Source: a virus. Taken from it: a DNA stretch of 64,000 bases. Made by a program: the position numbers and the translations under genes. The stretch's first letter is position 1. Every line of letters begins with the position of its first letter. The stretch spans positions 32,001 to 96,000 of the IMG/VR virus record IMGVR_UViG_3300023110_001773. The stretch is one strand, 5' to 3'. Positions 6,438 to 31,779 of the stretch are shown here, piece by piece. The notes beneath the pieces are model-generated. The model was not told where the DNA came from. It did no database searches and saw only the letters and a program-made list of their open reading frames with translations.

Positions 6438-6514
<77 letters not shown>

Positions 6515-6857: not shown

Positions 6858-7049
6858 TCAAGGAAATATTTCAACAAATTTTCGATAACTTTTTGAAAAC
6901 TGGCGGGAAGGTTTTGAAAAAATGATTTCTTCTTTAGTGCCAGTCTTGATGTATCCCACACACTTTGAGTCTTCAAATATATATGTGTGATTGGGGACAG
7001 TGTGTTCAACTTTGTCCCACTTGGTTATTTCTTTGAAGTATCTTTTCAA
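6858..7049 (-). CDS. Hypothetical early protein
   Basis: Part of a chain of overlapping small ORFs. Confidence 0.6.
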   Translation of the reverse strand: MKRYFKEITKWDKVEHTVPNHTYIFEDSKCVGYIKTGTKEEIIFSKPSRQFSKSYRKFVEIFP

Positions 7050-7819: not shown

Positions 7820-8205
7820 TAGGCAGCCTCCGCACCAACAAAAGAACTCATCAACTGAGTGAAACCCATTGGATCAACCATTAGGACTTCACCATATTCT
7901 CCAACGAGAATGTCACCAACTGACATCGAATGTTGTTGAGCATGGCGAGTGATCAACTTTTCGTAATCCTCATTGCCATGCGGATTATTGTGAACCAAAA
8001 ATGCCTGTTCACAATCGTTTACATCGATGTCAGCGACATGTTGGAAGTATTGATCATACTCGGTCACATAGGCCTCGGAACCACGCATGGTCAGTGCCAT
8101 GTGAGCCTCAACTCGGGGAAACTTTTCCATCGCCTCCGTCCAACCCATCTCATTGACGGCATCAAACTCGGAACGGGGAACATCTAACTGAAACAATCTA
8201 AACAT
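7819..8205 (-). CDS. YodL-like domain protein
   Basis: C-terminal HSMSVGDILV motif; first gene after the early promoter; start at 8205 follows a GAGAGAGG RBS. Confidence 0.55.
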   Translation of the reverse strand: MFRLFQLDVPRSEFDAVNEMGWTEAMEKFPRVEAHMALTMRGSEAYVTEYDQYFQHVADIDVNDCEQAFLVHNNPHGNEDYEKLITRHAQQHSMSVGDILVGEYGEVLMVDPMGFTQLMSSFVGAEAA

Positions 8206-8239
8206 CAAAAAAACCTCTCTCAACTCAATTTACACATAT

Positions 8240-8268
8240 ATTATGACAGCTATTGGGGCAGATGTCAA
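8240..8268 (-). promoter_or_regulatory. Sigma70-like early promoter
   Basis: TTGACA-17 nt-CATAAT; spacer motif ATAGCTGT shared with the promoter at 25140-25168. Confidence 0.75.
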
Positions 8269-8283
8269 GTTTTTAAACATCTG

Positions 8284-8343
8284 TAAGCCATTGATTTAAA
8301 AGGAAAAGCAAAAAAAATTAAAAAAAATGTAAGTCATTGATTT
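8284..8343. repeat. Two near-identical IHF-box-like direct repeats
   Basis: TAAGCCATTGATTT at 8284-8297 and TAAGTCATTGATTT at 8330-8343; their reverse complements fit WATCAANNNNTTR. Confidence 0.6.
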
Positions 8344-16143: not shown

Positions 16144-16560
16144 TTATTTTTTCCTACCAATATTGTATTTAGTGACCAGAGTCCAATCGTTTTTCTCCTT
16201 GTAAGGCAGAATCTTGATCTGACTCATTGGTGCTAATTTTTCCTCTGCAATAGGACTGCAAAGTTCAATCAGACCCCAATCACTCAACAGTTTGGCAATC
16301 GAGTTTCTTCTCATCAAATCATTGTCACTGAGTTCAGCAGACTTACCATCAAGAGCAAAGAGCTCTTTGAAATGGGTGATAAAATACCTACCCTGCTTGT
16401 GCAAGATATGACAAGATTGATATAAGACTTTTTCTTTTTTGGATGCAACACCTATTCTAGATAGGGTTTCTCTCACTTTCAAAAAGTCATCATCATTTTT
16501 TAATTTTATTTCCACTGGAGTATAATCTGGAAAATTAATAGCAAAAAAATCTTCACTCAT
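16144..16560 (-). CDS. regA: Translational repressor RegA
   Basis: DDFLKVRETLSRIG, LYQSCHILHKQGRYFITHFKELF. Confidence 0.95.
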   Translation of the reverse strand: MSEDFFAINFPDYTPVEIKLKNDDDFLKVRETLSRIGVASKKEKVLYQSCHILHKQGRYFITHFKELFALDGKSAELSDNDLMRRNSIAKLLSDWGLIELCSPIAEEKLAPMSQIKILPYKEKNDWTLVTKYNIGRKK

Positions 16561-20423: not shown

Positions 20424-20792
20424 TCAAATTTCAAAAGGTTTTTCCAAAATTTCATTTTCTGGCAAACTACACTCAATCCCATGCTTCTTGTGATATTCTA
20501 GAAGACATGGGAAAGAGGTAATTGGAATTCCGTTAAACGGTTCATCACTGATCAATTCTTTAAACTGCCTTTCATAATCATTGTAGTGTTCTTCATCATC
20601 AAAAACCATTGTCCACTTATAAGTCAATCCATCAGATGAAAACGTACTATGGGCCTCAACTCTTTCTTGTTGTCTTAACCAATCATGAAATATCTGTGAT
20701 GCTTTTTTGTGTTCAACAGTTCTTTCTTCTGATTGTTGATACCATTTTGTACTAAGTGTAGGTCTTTTTAAAACATACTCAAGTTTATACAT
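20424..20792 (-). CDS. Hypothetical protein (paralog of 20785..21120)
   Basis: Shares the DGxT...F.DEE.Y.DY pattern with its neighbour. Confidence 0.55.
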   Translation of the reverse strand: MYKLEYVLKRPTLSTKWYQQSEERTVEHKKASQIFHDWLRQQERVEAHSTFSSDGLTYKWTMVFDDEEHYNDYERQFKELISDEPFNGIPITSFPCLLEYHKKHGIECSLPENEILEKPFEI

Positions 20793-21120
20793 TTTCCGTA
20801 GTATGAGCAATGGTGACGTTATTTGTCGTACAATAATCTAGGAAAGCCTGATCTTGGAATTGGTCTTCAAGACCAGCTGATGTCCAAGCAGAAGTATAAT
20901 CATCGTATGCATCTTCATTAGCAAACATGATATCACAATAAACGGTATTGCCGTCTGGTTCTGCATCAAACACCACATCAGCTTCGTCTCTACCAGTCAA
21001 CCAATCTTGAAATGCAGACGCCTTGGTTTCATAGGTTGATCCTAAGAGGTCAGCTGCCCAAAAAGGCCACTCTACACTCTCAGATTGACGGGTAAATGTA
21101 ATTCTAATTCGATAAGCCAT
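20785..21120 (-). CDS. Hypothetical late protein
   Basis: GGAGAG RBS; late promoter TATAAATA at 21157-21164. Confidence 0.6.
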   Translation of the reverse strand: MAYRIRITFTRQSESVEWPFWAADLLGSTYETKASAFQDWLTGRDEADVVFDAEPDGNTVYCDIMFANEDAYDDYTSAWTSAGLEDQFQDQAFLDYCTTNNVTIAHTTENV

Positions 21121-21165
21121 TATTCTCTCCAAAAGTTAAATGGTAATTTACTCTCTTATTTATAA

Positions 21166-21238
21166 CAAAAAAATCGGGGACTGGCGAATTGAGAGAGAGT
21201 GAGAGAGGCCGCCAGTCCCCGATCCGCCCTAAGGCGGA
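21166..21238 (-). terminator. Terminator with 14-bp stem and 23-nt CU-rich loop, preceded by a small hairpin (candidate ncRNA)
   Basis: Perfect inverted repeat 21173-21186/21210-21223 followed by a T-run; second hairpin at 21223-21238. Confidence 0.7.
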
Positions 21239-21245
21239 ACCTTTA

Positions 21246-21521
21246 CTACTGTTCTAAGTCATGAACATGTAGTGCAATTAACGCATAGTGCAGTACTTTT
21301 AGCAAGTCTTTACGGTTCTTGCCCTCTTTTTTACCATACCTTTGCGTATATTTGATAATATTACCAAGGCAAAATCCTTCGCCATGTCCAGTATCTATAA
21401 CAAACTCGGTGGTTTGTACTTTGTTCTGAGCATAGTGTTCATCATATGTACTATCAACATATGCTTGAAGGTCAGCGATCAGCTGACCCTCATTGTATTT
21501 GTAATCTTTCTTAGAAGTCAT
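21246..21521 (-). CDS. DUF3310-like protein
   Basis: HY...GFCLGNIIKYTQRYGKK...DLLKVLHY; start at MTSKK. Confidence 0.7.
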   Translation of the reverse strand: MTSKKDYKYNEGQLIADLQAYVDSTYDEHYAQNKVQTTEFVIDTGHGEGFCLGNIIKYTQRYGKKEGKNRKDLLKVLHYALIALHVHDLEQ

Positions 21522-22695
21522 AGTTATCTGCCTCTGGGTTGTCATCATTCTGGTCTTCAGCAGGGGCATCAAGATCAACACCAGCATCAACCTTGGTGTA
21601 AAGATCGATGAAGGCAGACTTGGTGTCAGTGTCGAAACGGTTGACACACAACTGAATTGCCTTGAGGCGATCTTTGAACATGGCGTATGCCTTGACAATG
21701 TGTTCTAGACGGCGGGTTGAAACCAACTCATCAATGCCACCCTCATAGAAAGTCTTTCGGATCACATCAGCCCACAGTACCAACTTGTCGGCGAATTCAT
21801 CATCAACGCAGTCAGCGACTTCCATCTTGTTGAGAACAATTTTTTTCTCTTGAGCGGAAGACGGGTATTCCTGTTCAACCGTGATTGCGAATCGTTCGAG
21901 GAATGCCTCATCAAGAACCTGAGCACCCATGAACTTACCGTCATCAGAACCACGGCCCTTGGTGTTCGCAGTAGCGATCACATTGAAACCAGAGGCGGGA
22001 GTAACAACTTCGCCAGTCTTTTTGTTGAAGTAGGGTTTGCCTTCAAGGATTGCCTGTAGACACATCAACTTGTTTGATCCACGATCAATCTCATCAAGGA
22101 TCAAGACAGCGCCACGTTTCATGGCAGTCAGCACAGGGCCTTCACGGTAAACTACGTTACCATCAACCAACGTATTGCCACCGATCAGATCATCTTCATC
22201 GGTCTCAATCGAAATGTTGACACGGATTGCCTCACGTTTGAGTTTGGCACAAACCTGTTCAACCATCATGGTTTTACCGTTACCCGACAAACCACAAATG
22301 AATGTAGGATAGAACATACCAGACTTGACAATGTTCACTAGGTCACGATAGAAACCAAAAGGAACATATGTTTTGTCAGCGGCAGGAACTAGGTTTTCAA
22401 TTTCCACAGCAAGTTTCGCCTGAGTTAGAACCCTAGAAGCAGCAGCGGCCACTGGTTCGGGTTGGGTTTGAATAACCGCCACTGGTTTGGTTGGTTTGGG
22501 CATTGACACAACTTGGCCAACCATCTCGGGGTTAAACTGATTGCGGCCAACCTTGGCCTCTTTGAAAAACCACATCGGGTTTTTGAGACCAGCCTCACGG
22601 GCGATATCCATAACTTCAGATTTTGAGAAAATACCCGTCTGGTTGTTAGACTCAGCAAGGGCGGCCATCAGTTGATCTTTCTGTTTAATACTCAT
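21511..22695 (-). CDS. cobS: CobS/MoxR-like AAA+ ATPase
   Basis: GLSGNGKT, LILDEIDRG, IATANTKG, AFLERF. Confidence 0.85.
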   Translation of the reverse strand: MSIKQKDQLMAALAESNNQTGIFSKSEVMDIAREAGLKNPMWFFKEAKVGRNQFNPEMVGQVVSMPKPTKPVAVIQTQPEPVAAAASRVLTQAKLAVEIENLVPAADKTYVPFGFYRDLVNIVKSGMFYPTFICGLSGNGKTMMVEQVCAKLKREAIRVNISIETDEDDLIGGNTLVDGNVVYREGPVLTAMKRGAVLILDEIDRGSNKLMCLQAILEGKPYFNKKTGEVVTPASGFNVIATANTKGRGSDDGKFMGAQVLDEAFLERFAITVEQEYPSSAQEKKIVLNKMEVADCVDDEFADKLVLWADVIRKTFYEGGIDELVSTRRLEHIVKAYAMFKDRLKAIQLCVNRFDTDTKSAFIDLYTKVDAGVDLDAPAEDQNDDNPEADNYDF

Positions 22696-22736
22696 AATTT
22701 ACTCTCTCTATTAACTCAATCACTCAACATACTACT

Positions 22737-22817
22737 AGCTTACTACATCCCGAAGCAGAAGTCAAGGGGCTTGGCGAAAATAATTGAATTTTCTTTCCCT
22801 TTGAAATCAACAACTTA
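22737..22817 (-). promoter_or_regulatory. Sigma70-like early promoter with upstream IHF-box-like site
   Basis: TTGACT-17-TAAGCT; AAATCAACAACTTA at 22804-22817. Confidence 0.6.
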
Positions 22818-25112
22818 CGCAACCATATCAATAAATCGATTGATAAAGTGGCGGGAATTGGTCTTTTTGGACTGAAATTGGCGGAATCCACGCAGAATAT
22901 CTGACTTCTTTTCGGACTTTACTTCCAATTCAGCATCATCAATTTTGAGATCAGAACCACCTTTGATAAGGAAAGCCTGATCATATCCCCATGCACTATC
23001 AAGTGGCAGGTAATCTTTTTTCAACCAAGTACTTTTGTATACGGCATCAAACTCAGCGGTATCCCATTGATACGGATTGAGGGTTACCCAATTGTAAGCA
23101 TTTTTGACATCGCCACGTTTTTTACTGGTGATCCAGAAGTTTACCATGCGGGAACCCGTAACTTTTTTGAACATGGCAATACCAGCGAGAAGAGACATCT
23201 CTTTGCCAATACGGTAACGTGACTGATAAACTGCGGCGGGTTGTTTAACCACAACAGAAGTAGTGCCACGTTTTAGAATGAGTTTAGTGGCGAAAACTGA
23301 TTTGCGATTTCTCCAGCCATCATCTCTGATATTGTCACCCCAAATTTCATACTCATCAGTGTTACCGCCATCGGAAAGAACAATGGTGTTAAGCACTTCG
23401 ACACGATTGCGGTCTTTGAATTCTTTGGCAAGATCAGTAGCAATGATCATAGCACCGGCAAGGGGGGTAGAACCCAACGACAAGTGTCGAGGAAGATCGG
23501 CATAATTGGCAAGACATCCATTGTGTCGGTTAGAACGCCAACGACTACCATAATTAGCCCAAGTATCAGCGTAAATCAAAAGACTTTCAAATTGTTTTTT
23601 GTAGTCACTGGGTGAAGATTCTGAAGTGATTAATTGAATCATACCAGTGCCAGGATTGATGCAAATTTCATTTTCAGAATTTGACTGGCGAACACCTTCT
23701 CTCATATCCATACCACAAACAAAACCATATACATCAAATGGGATGCCAACTTTTTTGCAGAAGGAAACTTGTATCAATAACTGTTCAATTGTGCCAGCCA
23801 TATGTTGAGCCATAGAACCAGACATATCAAGAATCATGAACATGCCGTGGTTTTTGCCAGAAGGCGTGACAGTGTTTGACAAGAACAAGTCTTCGGTCAA
23901 CTTGTAGGCCCACAACTTATCTTCATTGAGTTTGCCAGTATTGTGAACCTGTGCCTTGCGTAACTCAGACGCCTTGCGCTTCATCTCAAACTGCATGACC
24001 AACTGATTGATGGAAGACTTGTTTTTAGATCGAAACGCATCAGACAAACTTTTACGATAGGCTTTTGCCTCATCGGCAGAAACTTCATCATAATAATTTT
24101 TTGTTAGTTTGAACTCAAAGTCCCAAGTTTTTGAGACGGGGATTACATGGTGTTTGCGACTGATAAACTTGGGGAAGTAAGCGGTGAAAACTGATTCACT
24201 GTCAGACTCCAAGAGGCGACTTTCATTTTGACGGAAACTTCTGTCGGTTTGCGACATGGGTTCGCCATCTTCAACAGGCGATTCACTTGATTGACTTGAT
24301 TGTGATTCAATCGGTTGATCAGATTCAGACTGTTCGGTGTCAGATTGAGAATCAGATTCGGAATCAGTAGACTCGGCAGATTCGGAACTGTCATCGGACT
24401 CTTCGCCAGTGGTCTCACCAGATTGGCCATCGCCCTCGGTGGGATCATCAGTATCTTCGGCGTCATCGGACATTTCCATTGAGGAACCTTGACCCTCGAC
24501 TTCTTCACTGTCATCTTCGCCAGCGGCAGGAGCAGGCTGTTCCTGTTGCTGATCTTCCATATCTTCCATTGCGCCATTATAAAGATCATTGGCAATGTCA
24601 ACTACATCAGACCATTCCTCAGCAGAATCAATGCGAGCGAGAAATTCTTTCTCGGAATCGGAAAACTGAACATTGAGGAATGAACCAATCTTGTAATGAA
24701 GATTGATACGATCAATCAGAGGCAGGGTGTTGACATCTTTATCAGCAACACCGAAAAAATCTTTGTCGAATAGGAAACGATAACCCTTGTAGAATGATTT
24801 AACAAGGCCGGGGTATCGTTGCTTGACTAGTCGTTCGTTGCGAGCGTCTTCAATAACATTTAGGAATGACTTGAAACCAGCACCTTGATCACAAACAGCA
24901 TCATGCCATCCTTCAGCGGGGGTGACCAAACCGTGGCCAACTTCATGTCCGATCAGAAGATCGTAAACATAGCCGGGCATATCTTTCCAATTGGGAAGAA
25001 TAATTTTGCGGTTTTTAAGATCGAACGCTGCGGTAGGAACATTAGCATGTTCTATCGCAAGGTCTTCGGTGGCCAACAACTTGGCGAGATAGGACTTGGA
25101 TTCAATATTCAT
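22815..25112 (-). CDS. CobT-like protein (HExxH domain, acidic linker, vWA domain)
   Basis: HEVGH, NVIEDARNE, D/E/S-rich linker, MIDAS LDMSGSM, STPL, LSDG; adjacent to the CobS-like ATPase. Confidence 0.8.
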   Translation of the reverse strand: MNIESKSYLAKLLATEDLAIEHANVPTAAFDLKNRKIILPNWKDMPGYVYDLLIGHEVGHGLVTPAEGWHDAVCDQGAGFKSFLNVIEDARNERLVKQRYPGLVKSFYKGYRFLFDKDFFGVADKDVNTLPLIDRINLHYKIGSFLNVQFSDSEKEFLARIDSAEEWSDVVDIANDLYNGAMEDMEDQQQEQPAPAAGEDDSEEVEGQGSSMEMSDDAEDTDDPTEGDGQSGETTGEESDDSSESAESTDSESDSQSDTEQSESDQPIESQSSQSSESPVEDGEPMSQTDRSFRQNESRLLESDSESVFTAYFPKFISRKHHVIPVSKTWDFEFKLTKNYYDEVSADEAKAYRKSLSDAFRSKNKSSINQLVMQFEMKRKASELRKAQVHNTGKLNEDKLWAYKLTEDLFLSNTVTPSGKNHGMFMILDMSGSMAQHMAGTIEQLLIQVSFCKKVGIPFDVYGFVCGMDMREGVRQSNSENEICINPGTGMIQLITSESSPSDYKKQFESLLIYADTWANYGSRWRSNRHNGCLANYADLPRHLSLGSTPLAGAMIIATDLAKEFKDRNRVEVLNTIVLSDGGNTDEYEIWGDNIRDDGWRNRKSVFATKLILKRGTTSVVVKQPAAVYQSRYRIGKEMSLLAGIAMFKKVTGSRMVNFWITSKKRGDVKNAYNWVTLNPYQWDTAEFDAVYKSTWLKKDYLPLDSAWGYDQAFLIKGGSDLKIDDAELEVKSEKKSDILRGFRQFQSKKTNSRHFINRFIDMVA

Positions 25113-25139
25113 ATAACTCTCACTCTCAAATACATGTAT

Positions 25140-25210
25140 AGTATGACAGCTATCGAGGCAAAAGTCAAGGGGCCCAGCGAAAAAAGATTTCCTTATAAAT
25201 CAAGGGCTTA
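25140..25210 (-). promoter_or_regulatory. Sigma70-like early promoter with upstream IHF-box-like site
   Basis: TTGACT-17-CATACT; AAATCAAGGGCTTA at 25197-25210. Confidence 0.65.
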
Positions 25211-25234
25211 CAAATTTTTTTCAATTTTTTTCGA

Positions 25235-31387: not shown

Positions 31388-31779
31388 GATAACTTCACTC
31401 GGTCTCGCAAACTAGTGGAAGAAAAAGAGTGTTTCCTATTGGTGAATACAACAGGTATGTTTAATTCGTCACCAGTAAATCTTTTGTCCCTATAATCTTC
31501 ACCGACAAACCGTACATCAATTTTTTTAGTGACAAGAATATCCATCAGGCATGTCTCACTTGAGTACGGAATAATTTCATCCACATACTTCAACCCGTCC
31601 AGTTGTATAAATCGTTCGTATACAGACTGCACCGGCGAGTTCTTACCTTTTCTGTCTAAGCTGGGGTCAATCTGCAAACCAACAATCAAGTAATCACATT
31701 TGCTTGATGCCTCTTCCAGCATCACAACATGTCCAGCGTGCAACAAATCAAATGCACCACAAGTAAATCCAACTATCAT
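31384..31779 (-). CDS. TagD-like cytidylyltransferase
   Basis: GAFDLLHAGH, LIVGL, YVDEI, GEDY, RKHSFSST. Confidence 0.85.
   Translation of the reverse strand: MIVGFTCGAFDLLHAGHVVMLEEASSKCDYLIVGLQIDPSLDRKGKNSPVQSVYERFIQLDGLKYVDEIIPYSSETCLMDILVTKKIDVRFVGEDYRDKRFTGDELNIPVVFTNRKHSFSSTSLRDRVKLS

Follow-up and report, generated by a model that had tools for sequence, protein, structure and literature searches.

A hairpin at the 3' end of an early operon in a T4-like marine phage is, judged by its sequence, a member of a previously uncatalogued family of hairpin RNAs that is widespread in marine T4-like phages. The pattern of base changes in its stem makes it almost certain that the hairpin is a real RNA structure, kept by selection on the coding-sense strand. 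The best-supported reading of its function, to which we assign a probability of about 0.55 from the sequence comparisons below, is that its large CU-rich loop represses the translation of early phage genes in trans as an antisense RNA.

The hairpin was found in a metagenome-derived virus record of 165,637 bp (IMGVR_UViG_3300023110_001773) that is complete according to CheckV. The window, by which we mean the whole stretch of 64,000 nucleotides analysed here, corresponds to bases 32001-96000 of the record, has a G+C content of 39%, and is transcribed almost entirely from the minus strand. The gene content is that of a T4-like marine myovirus, with a gp45 clamp, a cobS-like AAA+ ATPase, a DUF3310 protein and a regA-like repressor. 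No close relative was found in GenBank, where the nearest phages were cyanophages, the Pelagibacter phage HTVC008M and the Methylophilales phage Melnitz. The sole megablast match to GenBank phages in a 20-kb query was at window positions ~16358-16492, a stretch that matches a gene of phage C48C1 annotated as 'translation repressor' (regA-like); thus, the phage also has a protein repressor of early translation. The operon that ends in the hairpin is encoded on the minus strand and begins with a 765-aa gene (22815-25112; PHROG 459, 'peptidase'), continues with a CobS-like AAA+ (MoxR/CbbQ) ATPase gene (21511-22695; Pfam AAA_5 and CbbQ_C, with matches to cyanophage cobS in GenBank), and closes with a DUF3310 gene (21246-21521; Pfam PF11753, E 1e-12), of which the hairpin forms the 3' UTR.

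Read on the minus strand, the DUF3310 open reading frame ends in UAG UAA and is followed by a 5' mini-hairpin (CCGCC-UUAG-GGCGG, 21224-21237) that abuts the main stem. The main stem is formed by a 5' arm (AUCGGGGACUGGCG, 21210-21223) and a 3' arm (CGCCAGUCCCCGAU, 21173-21186), and encloses a 23-nt CU-rich loop (GCCUCUCUCACUCUCUCUCAAUU, 21187-21209) that is anti-SD-like, open in the minimum-energy fold, and the proposed seed. Beyond the stem lies a U-tract of six U (seven with the paired one; 21167-21172), which forms an intrinsic-terminator tail and is likely the 3' end of the RNA. The earlier note on this DNA had described a perfect 14-bp stem with a 23-nt loop at the operon end, and every one of these sequence statements is correct on the minus strand. 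The predicted energy of the RNA fold, in which the whole loop is open, is -38.7 kcal/mol (z = -4.84), a value that none of 200 shuffles reached. The hairpin follows the peptidase-cobS-DUF3310 operon on the minus strand and occurs once in the genome, and the loop and stem sequences are unique within the window. Its GC-rich 14-bp stem followed by U7 has the form of an intrinsic terminator, but the hairpin falls outside the usual definition of a short loop (3-8 nt) with a conserved stem and U-tract, its loop being 23 nt long. A simple terminator scan missed the hairpin because the scan allows loops only up to 8 nt. By position the hairpin qualifies as a candidate 3'-UTR-derived sRNA, since it lies after the DUF3310 stop codon, shares the mRNA terminator and has a conserved single-stranded loop.

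To examine the hairpin in related phages, we used CobS as the anchor and retrieved 80 related loci. Of these, at least 45 (L001-L045 and L052) have a hairpin at the equivalent site, followed closely by TATAAATA and a conserved MAY... gene. The stems of these relatives are unrelated in sequence (for example GGGGACUGGCG, GAGAACCGACAG, GACCCUCGGGACC and CUAAGACUGUCACUU), and the site of the mini-hairpin is occupied by a small hairpin of other sequence (such as CCGGCG/CGCCGG, GCCC/GGGC or CCCC/GGGG). The loops retain CCUCUCUC(UU)ACUCUCUC, or CUUCUCUCCUC or ACUCCUCUCCUCA in remoter clades, and some contain CUCCUCUCCUC; among 33 unique hairpins, the loop core CCUCUCUC...CUCUC is invariant. Conservation in these sequences is thus a property of the loop, and the stem sequence is free. 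A loop not conserved in relatives would have spoken against the proposal of the earlier note, and it was found that the loop is kept while the stem co-varies.

Covariation was scored in two ways. A loop-anchored count of the 33 unique hairpins gave 332 Watson-Crick and 43 G.U pairs versus 2 A.C pairs, with 4-6 pair types at each of 12 stem positions, a count that carries some ascertainment bias in that the hairpin finder somewhat favoured G.U. The excess of G.U over A.C pairs shows that the coding-sense strand is the one that folds. Because the loop lengths differ, MAFFT slid the stems out of register, and the MAFFT hairpin alignments were left out of the pair counts and replaced by the loop-anchored count and a model-fitted alignment. 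In the model-fitted alignment of 16 distinct sequences, 12 of 12 pairs vary on both sides and 97.3% of the cells pair, and the covariation score was 0.93, as compared with 0.22 +/- 0.035 for shuffles (0/500) and 0.11-0.19 for slid partners. In most clades, though not in all, the gene upstream of the hairpin is that for DUF3310. An obligatory partnership with the DUF3310 protein, in analogy to CcaF1-CcsR, was rejected, as the upstream neighbour differs in L020, L023, L040, L110, L155 and L087 and is also different in all stand-alone copies.

Those stand-alone copies came from a scan of viral contigs by the loop pattern alone, which recovered the cobS-context copies and a second context in about 20 contigs. 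In the second context, a sigma70-type promoter (TTGAC-N17-TAnnAT) is followed, after a gap of 3-8 nt, by a co-varying stem of 12-16 bp with the loop ACCUCUCUCUCAACUCUCUCUC, and an intrinsic terminator or a tRNA gene lies directly downstream. With this arrangement, the second-context copies look like stand-alone small-RNA genes of related marine myophages. The tRNA gene lies 5-10 nt past the hairpin in L085, L109, L135, L149, L181, L093, L145, L161 and L194, of which L093 also has a permuted alpha-type tmRNA; where a tRNA adjoins the hairpin, RNase P cleavage would release the hairpin. The cultured phage Melnitz has a stand-alone copy at MZ577097 38547-38600, annotated as the hypothetical-protein CDS Melnitz_66. 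Melnitz_66 (59 aa; L195:2376-2430, MZ577097.1) begins exactly at the 5' arm of the CU-loop hairpin, and the copy has its own TTGACT-N17-TATGAT promoter and a GCCCUUG/CAAGGGC-U8 terminator. Given these elements, Melnitz_66 very probably does not encode a protein but is a misannotated small-RNA gene. Melnitz also has S21 and DUF1127 genes (L196:35389-35661 and 31406-31624) a few kb from the CU-loop RNA gene. DUF1127 is the domain of the cuckoo-RNA partner CcaF1, and no S21 or DUF1127 genes were found beside the window copy. An S21 link was rejected as a general explanation, since Melnitz has the gene and the genome of the window is without it.

To relate the two contexts, a covariance model (R1) was built from eight stand-alone copies of other phages only. 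With R1, the hairpin of the window reached 30.7 bits, which corresponds to E 1e-3 in a search of 629 kb and to E 2.8e-4 in its own genome. Each of 25 cobS loci likewise had one sense-strand match, where it was expected, and the 629 kb had no other; the complete 165.6-kb genome had exactly one match. Since a model made from stand-alone copies finds the cobS-context hairpins, both contexts share one module, a CU-rich anti-SD-like loop of 19-30 nt on a stem of 12-19 bp. Indeed, the window hairpin has each feature by which the R1 family is defined: a stem of at least 12 bp, free in sequence, and a conserved CCUCUCUC..CUCUC loop. Rfam 15 has no family at the window hairpin at the gathering score or at E <= 10, and none at the gathering score in 12 related loci. 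No description of the hairpin family was found in full-text searches of the literature, and such an RNA is mentioned neither in the Melnitz paper nor in the pelagimyophage paper. A host-encoded origin was rejected: the 22-nt stand-alone loop has a single exact match among 185,579 prokaryote genomes, on an archaeal MAG contig with no obvious stem, and the motif is therefore phage-specific. This lone match (L198:71-92, JAGGUS010000137.1, Thermoprotei MAG) has a TTGACT 25 nt upstream and no clear stem, and may be phage-derived DNA in the MAG, or chance.

We then turn to the predicted targets. The earlier note had claimed that the loop is complementary to the leaders of the genes starting at 8205, 25112 and 22695, and these complements are exactly as it described, at the SD position, 2-8 nt before the ATG. 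The first gene of the operon is preceded (25113-25168, minus strand) by an early promoter, TTGACTTTTGCC...CATACT, and a leader with GAGAGUGAGAG at 25127-25117, an 11-nt loop complement. The cobS gene is preceded (22696-22765, minus strand) by TTGACTTCTGCT...TAAGCT and a leader with AGAGAGAGU at 22709-22701 plus AUUGAG, and the gene at 8205 (8206-8268, minus strand) by TTGACATCTGCC...CATAAT and a leader that reads AAUUGAG (8230-8224), U, and UGAGAGAGG (8222-8214). A regulon of three leaders, as then proposed, stands in so far as all three match, but the promoters of this one class number about eight, not three. The class comprises promoters with an ORF and the extended -35 motif TTGAC[AT]N[CT]TGC, and was defined independently of the leaders; at least four of the eight ORF-bearing promoters also share an upstream AATCAATGGCTTAC box.

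A perfect loop complement of at least 8 nt was present in 7 of the 8 class leaders versus 7 of 203 other starts (Fisher 8e-9), a comparison in which the class leaders are not independent observations because they sit in a repeated promoter cassette. The complements in class leaders are 8-12 nt long and end 2-8 nt before the ATG, and the mean duplex energy was -17.7 kcal/mol for class leaders versus -8.7 kcal/mol for other starts (Mann-Whitney 4e-5). Among all 210 predicted starts, leaders named in the earlier note came 4th and 6th, two further leaders of the same promoter class ranked 1 and 3, and the class as a whole stood far above background. The best complements lie outside the window and are AUUGAGAGAGAG (12 nt, genome 160618) and AGAGAGAGUGA (11 nt, genome 6780). 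The warning that the matches are of low complexity was justified, as a large part of the complementarity consists of generic CU/GA pairing. Of 2000 loop shuffles that preserved composition, none equalled the real loop on class leaders, and the generic 16S anti-SD tail can pair with no more than 4-5 nt of them. The mean match was 9.0 nt for the real loop, 8.25 nt for the reversed loop and 6.6 nt for plain (CU)n. Compared with alternating-CU loops in which four purines were placed at random, the real loop was better, by a modest difference (p = 0.0013 for length, 0.024 for energy).

The promoter cassette itself is about 100 nt long, is repeated, and is reminiscent of T4-type PeSL cassettes. The class promoters share an upstream block, ...CTTTTCCTT..AATCAATGGCTTACAGAGGCAG..., at window 8268-8340, 22765-22830 and 25168-25230, and also at genome 160663, 165062 and 6828; the upstream cassette block AAATCAATGACTTAG is conserved in related contigs. 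A class promoter at genome 127891 (minus strand; 95891 in the frame of the window, and outside it) is followed by a tRNA-like 3' end, GGGGGUGCGAUUCCCCCCACCUCCAC, and no ORF, which suggests that the RNA behind this promoter is a tmRNA or other structured RNA under early control. Within the window, a tRNA gene (6441-6514, minus strand; Rfam tRNA, 65.7 bits) lies just downstream of the early promoter at 6861.

Among the sequence comparisons, the clade-specific matches between loop and leader are the evidence least affected by low complexity. The window has a CAC-centred loop that faces the leader GAGAGUGAGAG. In L026 and L027, the loop UCCUAACUAUAC... faces the cobS leader UAUAGUUAGGA over 11 nt, a match that in L026 is not of low complexity, and in L025 and L028 the loop ...CUCUAACUCCUCUCC... 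faces leaders with GAGGAGUUAGA (10-11 nt) and GAGAGGAGU (9 nt). The leader match of L004 is UUGAGAGUGAGAG (13 nt); L020, L040 and L041 have the leader GAGAGAGGUC(A) versus the loop (U)GACCUCUCUC; and in the stand-alone contigs L098 and L136 the leader AGUUGAGAGA matches a CAAC-centred loop. Co-variation of loop and leader in relatives, which the earlier note had named as a check, was thus found in that diverged clades have their own matches. When loops were swapped between clades, the loop of a clade paired better with its own leader than the loops of other clades did, a test that is confounded by phylogeny and amounts to roughly 2-5 independent events. In the diverged clades, the two complementary blocks are not ordered as in an inverted copy of the leader, which speaks against a DNA inverted repeat and in favour of selection on the pairing itself. 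No loop match was found for other sigma70-type leaders of these loci, for example that of gene 45. Among the early leaders in the first 50 kb of Melnitz, a single one had an 8-nt loop match; this is a weak replication, and stand-alone copies may therefore have other targets.

Downstream of the hairpin, the window has a T4-type late promoter, TATAAATA (21157-21164, minus strand), for the next gene, and TATAAATA is found 2-12 nt past the hairpin in all cobS-context relatives. The hairpin was rejected as a general feature of late promoters, since only one of the 27 TATAAATA sites in the genome is preceded by this hairpin. Directly after the late promoter lies a GA box, AGAGAGU (21150-21156, minus strand), that complements ACUCUCU of the loop. 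The box is present in most clades of the CUCUCUC type (homologous sites in L001-L017, L029 and L123). The length over which it complements the loop runs from 7 nt in the window, through 8 nt (L001 and L029) and 10 nt (L005), to a perfect 11 nt in L008-L015, and in some clades the box is as complementary to the loop as the leaders are. The gene that follows (20785-21120, minus strand; SD GGAGAG at 21130-21125) is a conserved 111-aa late gene (MAYR...), whose protein had no Pfam, PHROG or GenBank-phage match. T4 late transcripts start about 6 nt after the late-promoter motif. Since a late start ~6 nt past TATAAATA lacks most of the GA box, the loop would meet the box only on read-through transcripts. 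The sequence of the GA box suggests an added or alternative role in cis, either as a late-gene lock or in self-sequestration of the seed.

Such a lock is the content of one competing explanation. If the hairpin were a translational lock in cis on the downstream late gene, for which the T4 genes e, 49 and soc are the precedent, read-through early transcripts would pair the loop with the GA box that follows the late promoter, or with the SD (GGAGAG) in front of the 111-aa gene, and the gene would be translated only from a shorter late-promoter transcript without the hairpin. The order of hairpin, TATAAATA, 25-40 nt and MAY... gene is kept in all cobS-context clades, the GA box complements the loop (11 nt perfect in L008-L015), the U-tract is weak or absent in several clades so that read-through is expected, and a swap test of each loop against its own downstream region, itself confounded by phylogeny, gave p about 2e-4. 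The late promoter stands between the hairpin and the gene, and the loop complements the GA box over 7-11 nt and the SD itself weakly, over 4-7 nt. However, the GA box is not the SD, which lies 15-25 nt beyond it, and L020, L025, L026 and L028 are without a GA box, with SD matches of only 4-6 nt. Moreover, stand-alone homologues precede a terminator or a tRNA and have no gene to lock, and the window copy has a strong U7 terminator. We consider a lock in cis unlikely as the main function. Far less likely still is that the hairpin is no more than an intrinsic terminator or a stabiliser of the 3' end, with a loop that is CU-rich by chance and leader matches that merely reflect GA-rich SDs. The perfect GC-rich stem with U7 at an operon end and the large low-complexity part of the complementarity would fit this explanation, but the loop is kept over clades with unrelated stems, recurs in independently transcribed stand-alone genes, and belongs to the sole hairpin of its kind in 165 kb. 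In addition, the U-tract is weak in several clades and missing in L025, L028 and L029, and termination alone therefore fails to explain the conservation.

The loop could also serve as a decoy or a protein-binding site rather than as an antisense seed, which we regard as improbable. As a mimic of the pyrimidine-rich 3' tail of 16S rRNA (CACCUCCUUUCU vs CACCUCUCUCUC), it could bind S1, S21 or an RNase, or act as a sponge for SD-bearing host mRNAs or GA-rich host RNA. In many members the start of the loop, (C/G)(A/C)CCUC, resembles an anti-SD, and a loop nearly invariant across phages of different hosts would fit a universal partner. Melnitz-type phages encode the ribosomal protein S21, and the Melnitz leaders match their own loop only weakly, whereas the genome of the window has no S21 gene. 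Clade-specific matches such as UAUAGUUAGGA are unrelated to an anti-SD, and no candidate protein partner is linked to the hairpin, whose upstream neighbour varies. It is also very improbable that the motif is an operator in double-stranded DNA, at which one regulator would read the GA/CT box at the early units and, inverted, beside the late promoter. The motif does closely follow the -10 element of the early promoters, and it flanks TATAAATA on either side. Nevertheless, its place is always the loop of a long stem whose co-varying pairs include G.U but not A.C, which is an RNA signature, its orientation is always antisense to the leaders, and the stand-alone copies resemble small RNA genes.

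Antisense repression in trans thus remains the reading we prefer, and action in trans is favoured by the existence of stand-alone homologues that have a promoter and a terminator of their own. We propose that the early promoters would make the hairpin as the 3' end of the peptidase-cobS-DUF3310 transcript, where the module would double as the intrinsic terminator of this early operon. The RNA may be shortened to about 75 nt, the mini-hairpin marking its 5' boundary, and could act alone or as an mRNA 3' end. Its open loop would form duplexes of 8-13 bp with GA-rich leaders of the UUGAGAGAGG or GAGAGUGAGAG type, a pairing of about one helical turn at the SD region of the early mRNAs. Match lengths of 8-13 nt fit what a hairpin loop of 19-30 nt can pair with a linear partner. 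The target leaders would be those that follow about eight sigma70-type early promoters, including the two of its own operon. Since the pairing covers the ribosome-binding site, translation of the early genes would be turned down; initiation would be blocked, and early translation would fall as the RNA accumulates, giving a delayed negative feedback on the early regulon. A broader proposal, to which we give somewhat less than an even chance, is that an undescribed class of small RNAs in Kyanoviridae, pelagimyophages and Melnitz-type phages, and not a RegB-type nuclease, switches off the GA-leader early regulon, and possibly host SD-dependent translation as well. If this is true, a hairpin that mimics the anti-SD, encoded as a stand-alone early gene or an operon terminator, acts during infection of abundant ocean bacteria.

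The timing of early genes in lytic phages is generally ascribed almost wholly to proteins, and very few trans-acting regulatory RNAs are known from such phages. In the literature, we found no trans-acting regulatory RNA described for the abundant marine T4-like phages. The hairpin offers a compact and testable case, with textbook covariation, a conserved seed and a predicted set of about eight leaders, and it has a homologue, currently annotated as a protein, in the cultured phage-host pair of Melnitz and OM43. If the antisense reading is true, an RNA layer would be added to the T4 early-to-late programme, annotations would be corrected in many phage genomes and a new Rfam family would be gained, and the loop-presented anti-SD would be a simple design for synthetic translational control.

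Several known systems invite comparison. The early shut-off of T4 has the same outcome as proposed here, the silencing of early mRNAs via their SD regions: RegB cleaves GGAG in early SDs and RegA represses, so that the effectors are proteins. In contrast, the proposed effector here is an RNA, in a phage that also has a regA-like gene. The c4 RNA of phages P1 and P7 (Rfam C4) is a phage antisense RNA whose loops pair with the ribosome-binding region of a target mRNA in the same unit; it is released by RNase P and controls one immunity operon in a temperate phage. The present hairpin is likewise a structured phage RNA, and its tRNA-adjoining copies are comparable in view of RNase P release, but its candidate target is the early regulon of a lytic T4-like phage instead of an immunity operon. 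The Rfam C4 covariance model had no match to the window hairpin or the Melnitz copy, and there is no sequence similarity. CpxQ and SroC are bacterial 3'-UTR-derived sRNAs that share the terminator of their mRNA, are Hfq-dependent, and usually have the seed 5' of the terminator hairpin. The phage RNA resembles them as an mRNA 3' end with a shared terminator and a conserved single-stranded seed that could feed back, and differs in that the proposed seed is the terminator loop itself. The suhB/MmgR RNA is a CU-rich sRNA of the anti-SD type with a terminator. Of the Rfam families, this one (RF00519) came closest to the Melnitz copy, but its score there (22.4 bits, E 0.009) fell far short of the gathering score of 41, and the window copy had no match; the hairpin is thus not a member.

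The cuckoo or CcsR RNAs (ar14, NfeR) of Alphaproteobacteria are stable hairpins with a pyrimidine-rich anti-SD motif in the loop (PMC8034643). They arise in Rhodobacter by cleavage from the 3' UTR of an mRNA for a small protein, and elsewhere by separate transcription (PMC8034643). The phage family also has a 3'-UTR form and a stand-alone form. Cuckoo RNAs are defined by a CCUCCUCCC motif in the loops of two hairpins (PMC8034643). In contrast, the phage RNA has one large loop (19-30 nt) on a stem of 12-19 bp rather than two hairpins, and this loop has the alternating sequence CCUCUCUC...CUCUC and not CCUCCUCCC; the single loop of the window, with CCUCUCUC...CUCUCUC, did not pass the cuckoo motif test. 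The present RNA is also phage-encoded, and its predicted targets are the early leaders of the phage itself. The cuckoo/CcsR covariance models gave no match at E <= 10 in the window region or the Melnitz copy, and none at the gathering score in the window or 12 loci. Since the hairpin failed the defining tests by motif and by model, it is not a member of the cuckoo or c4 RNAs and represents a new phage family. By analogy of function and architecture, the closest known system is that of the cuckoo/CcsR RNAs, together with the terminator-sharing 3'-UTR sRNAs and P1 c4.
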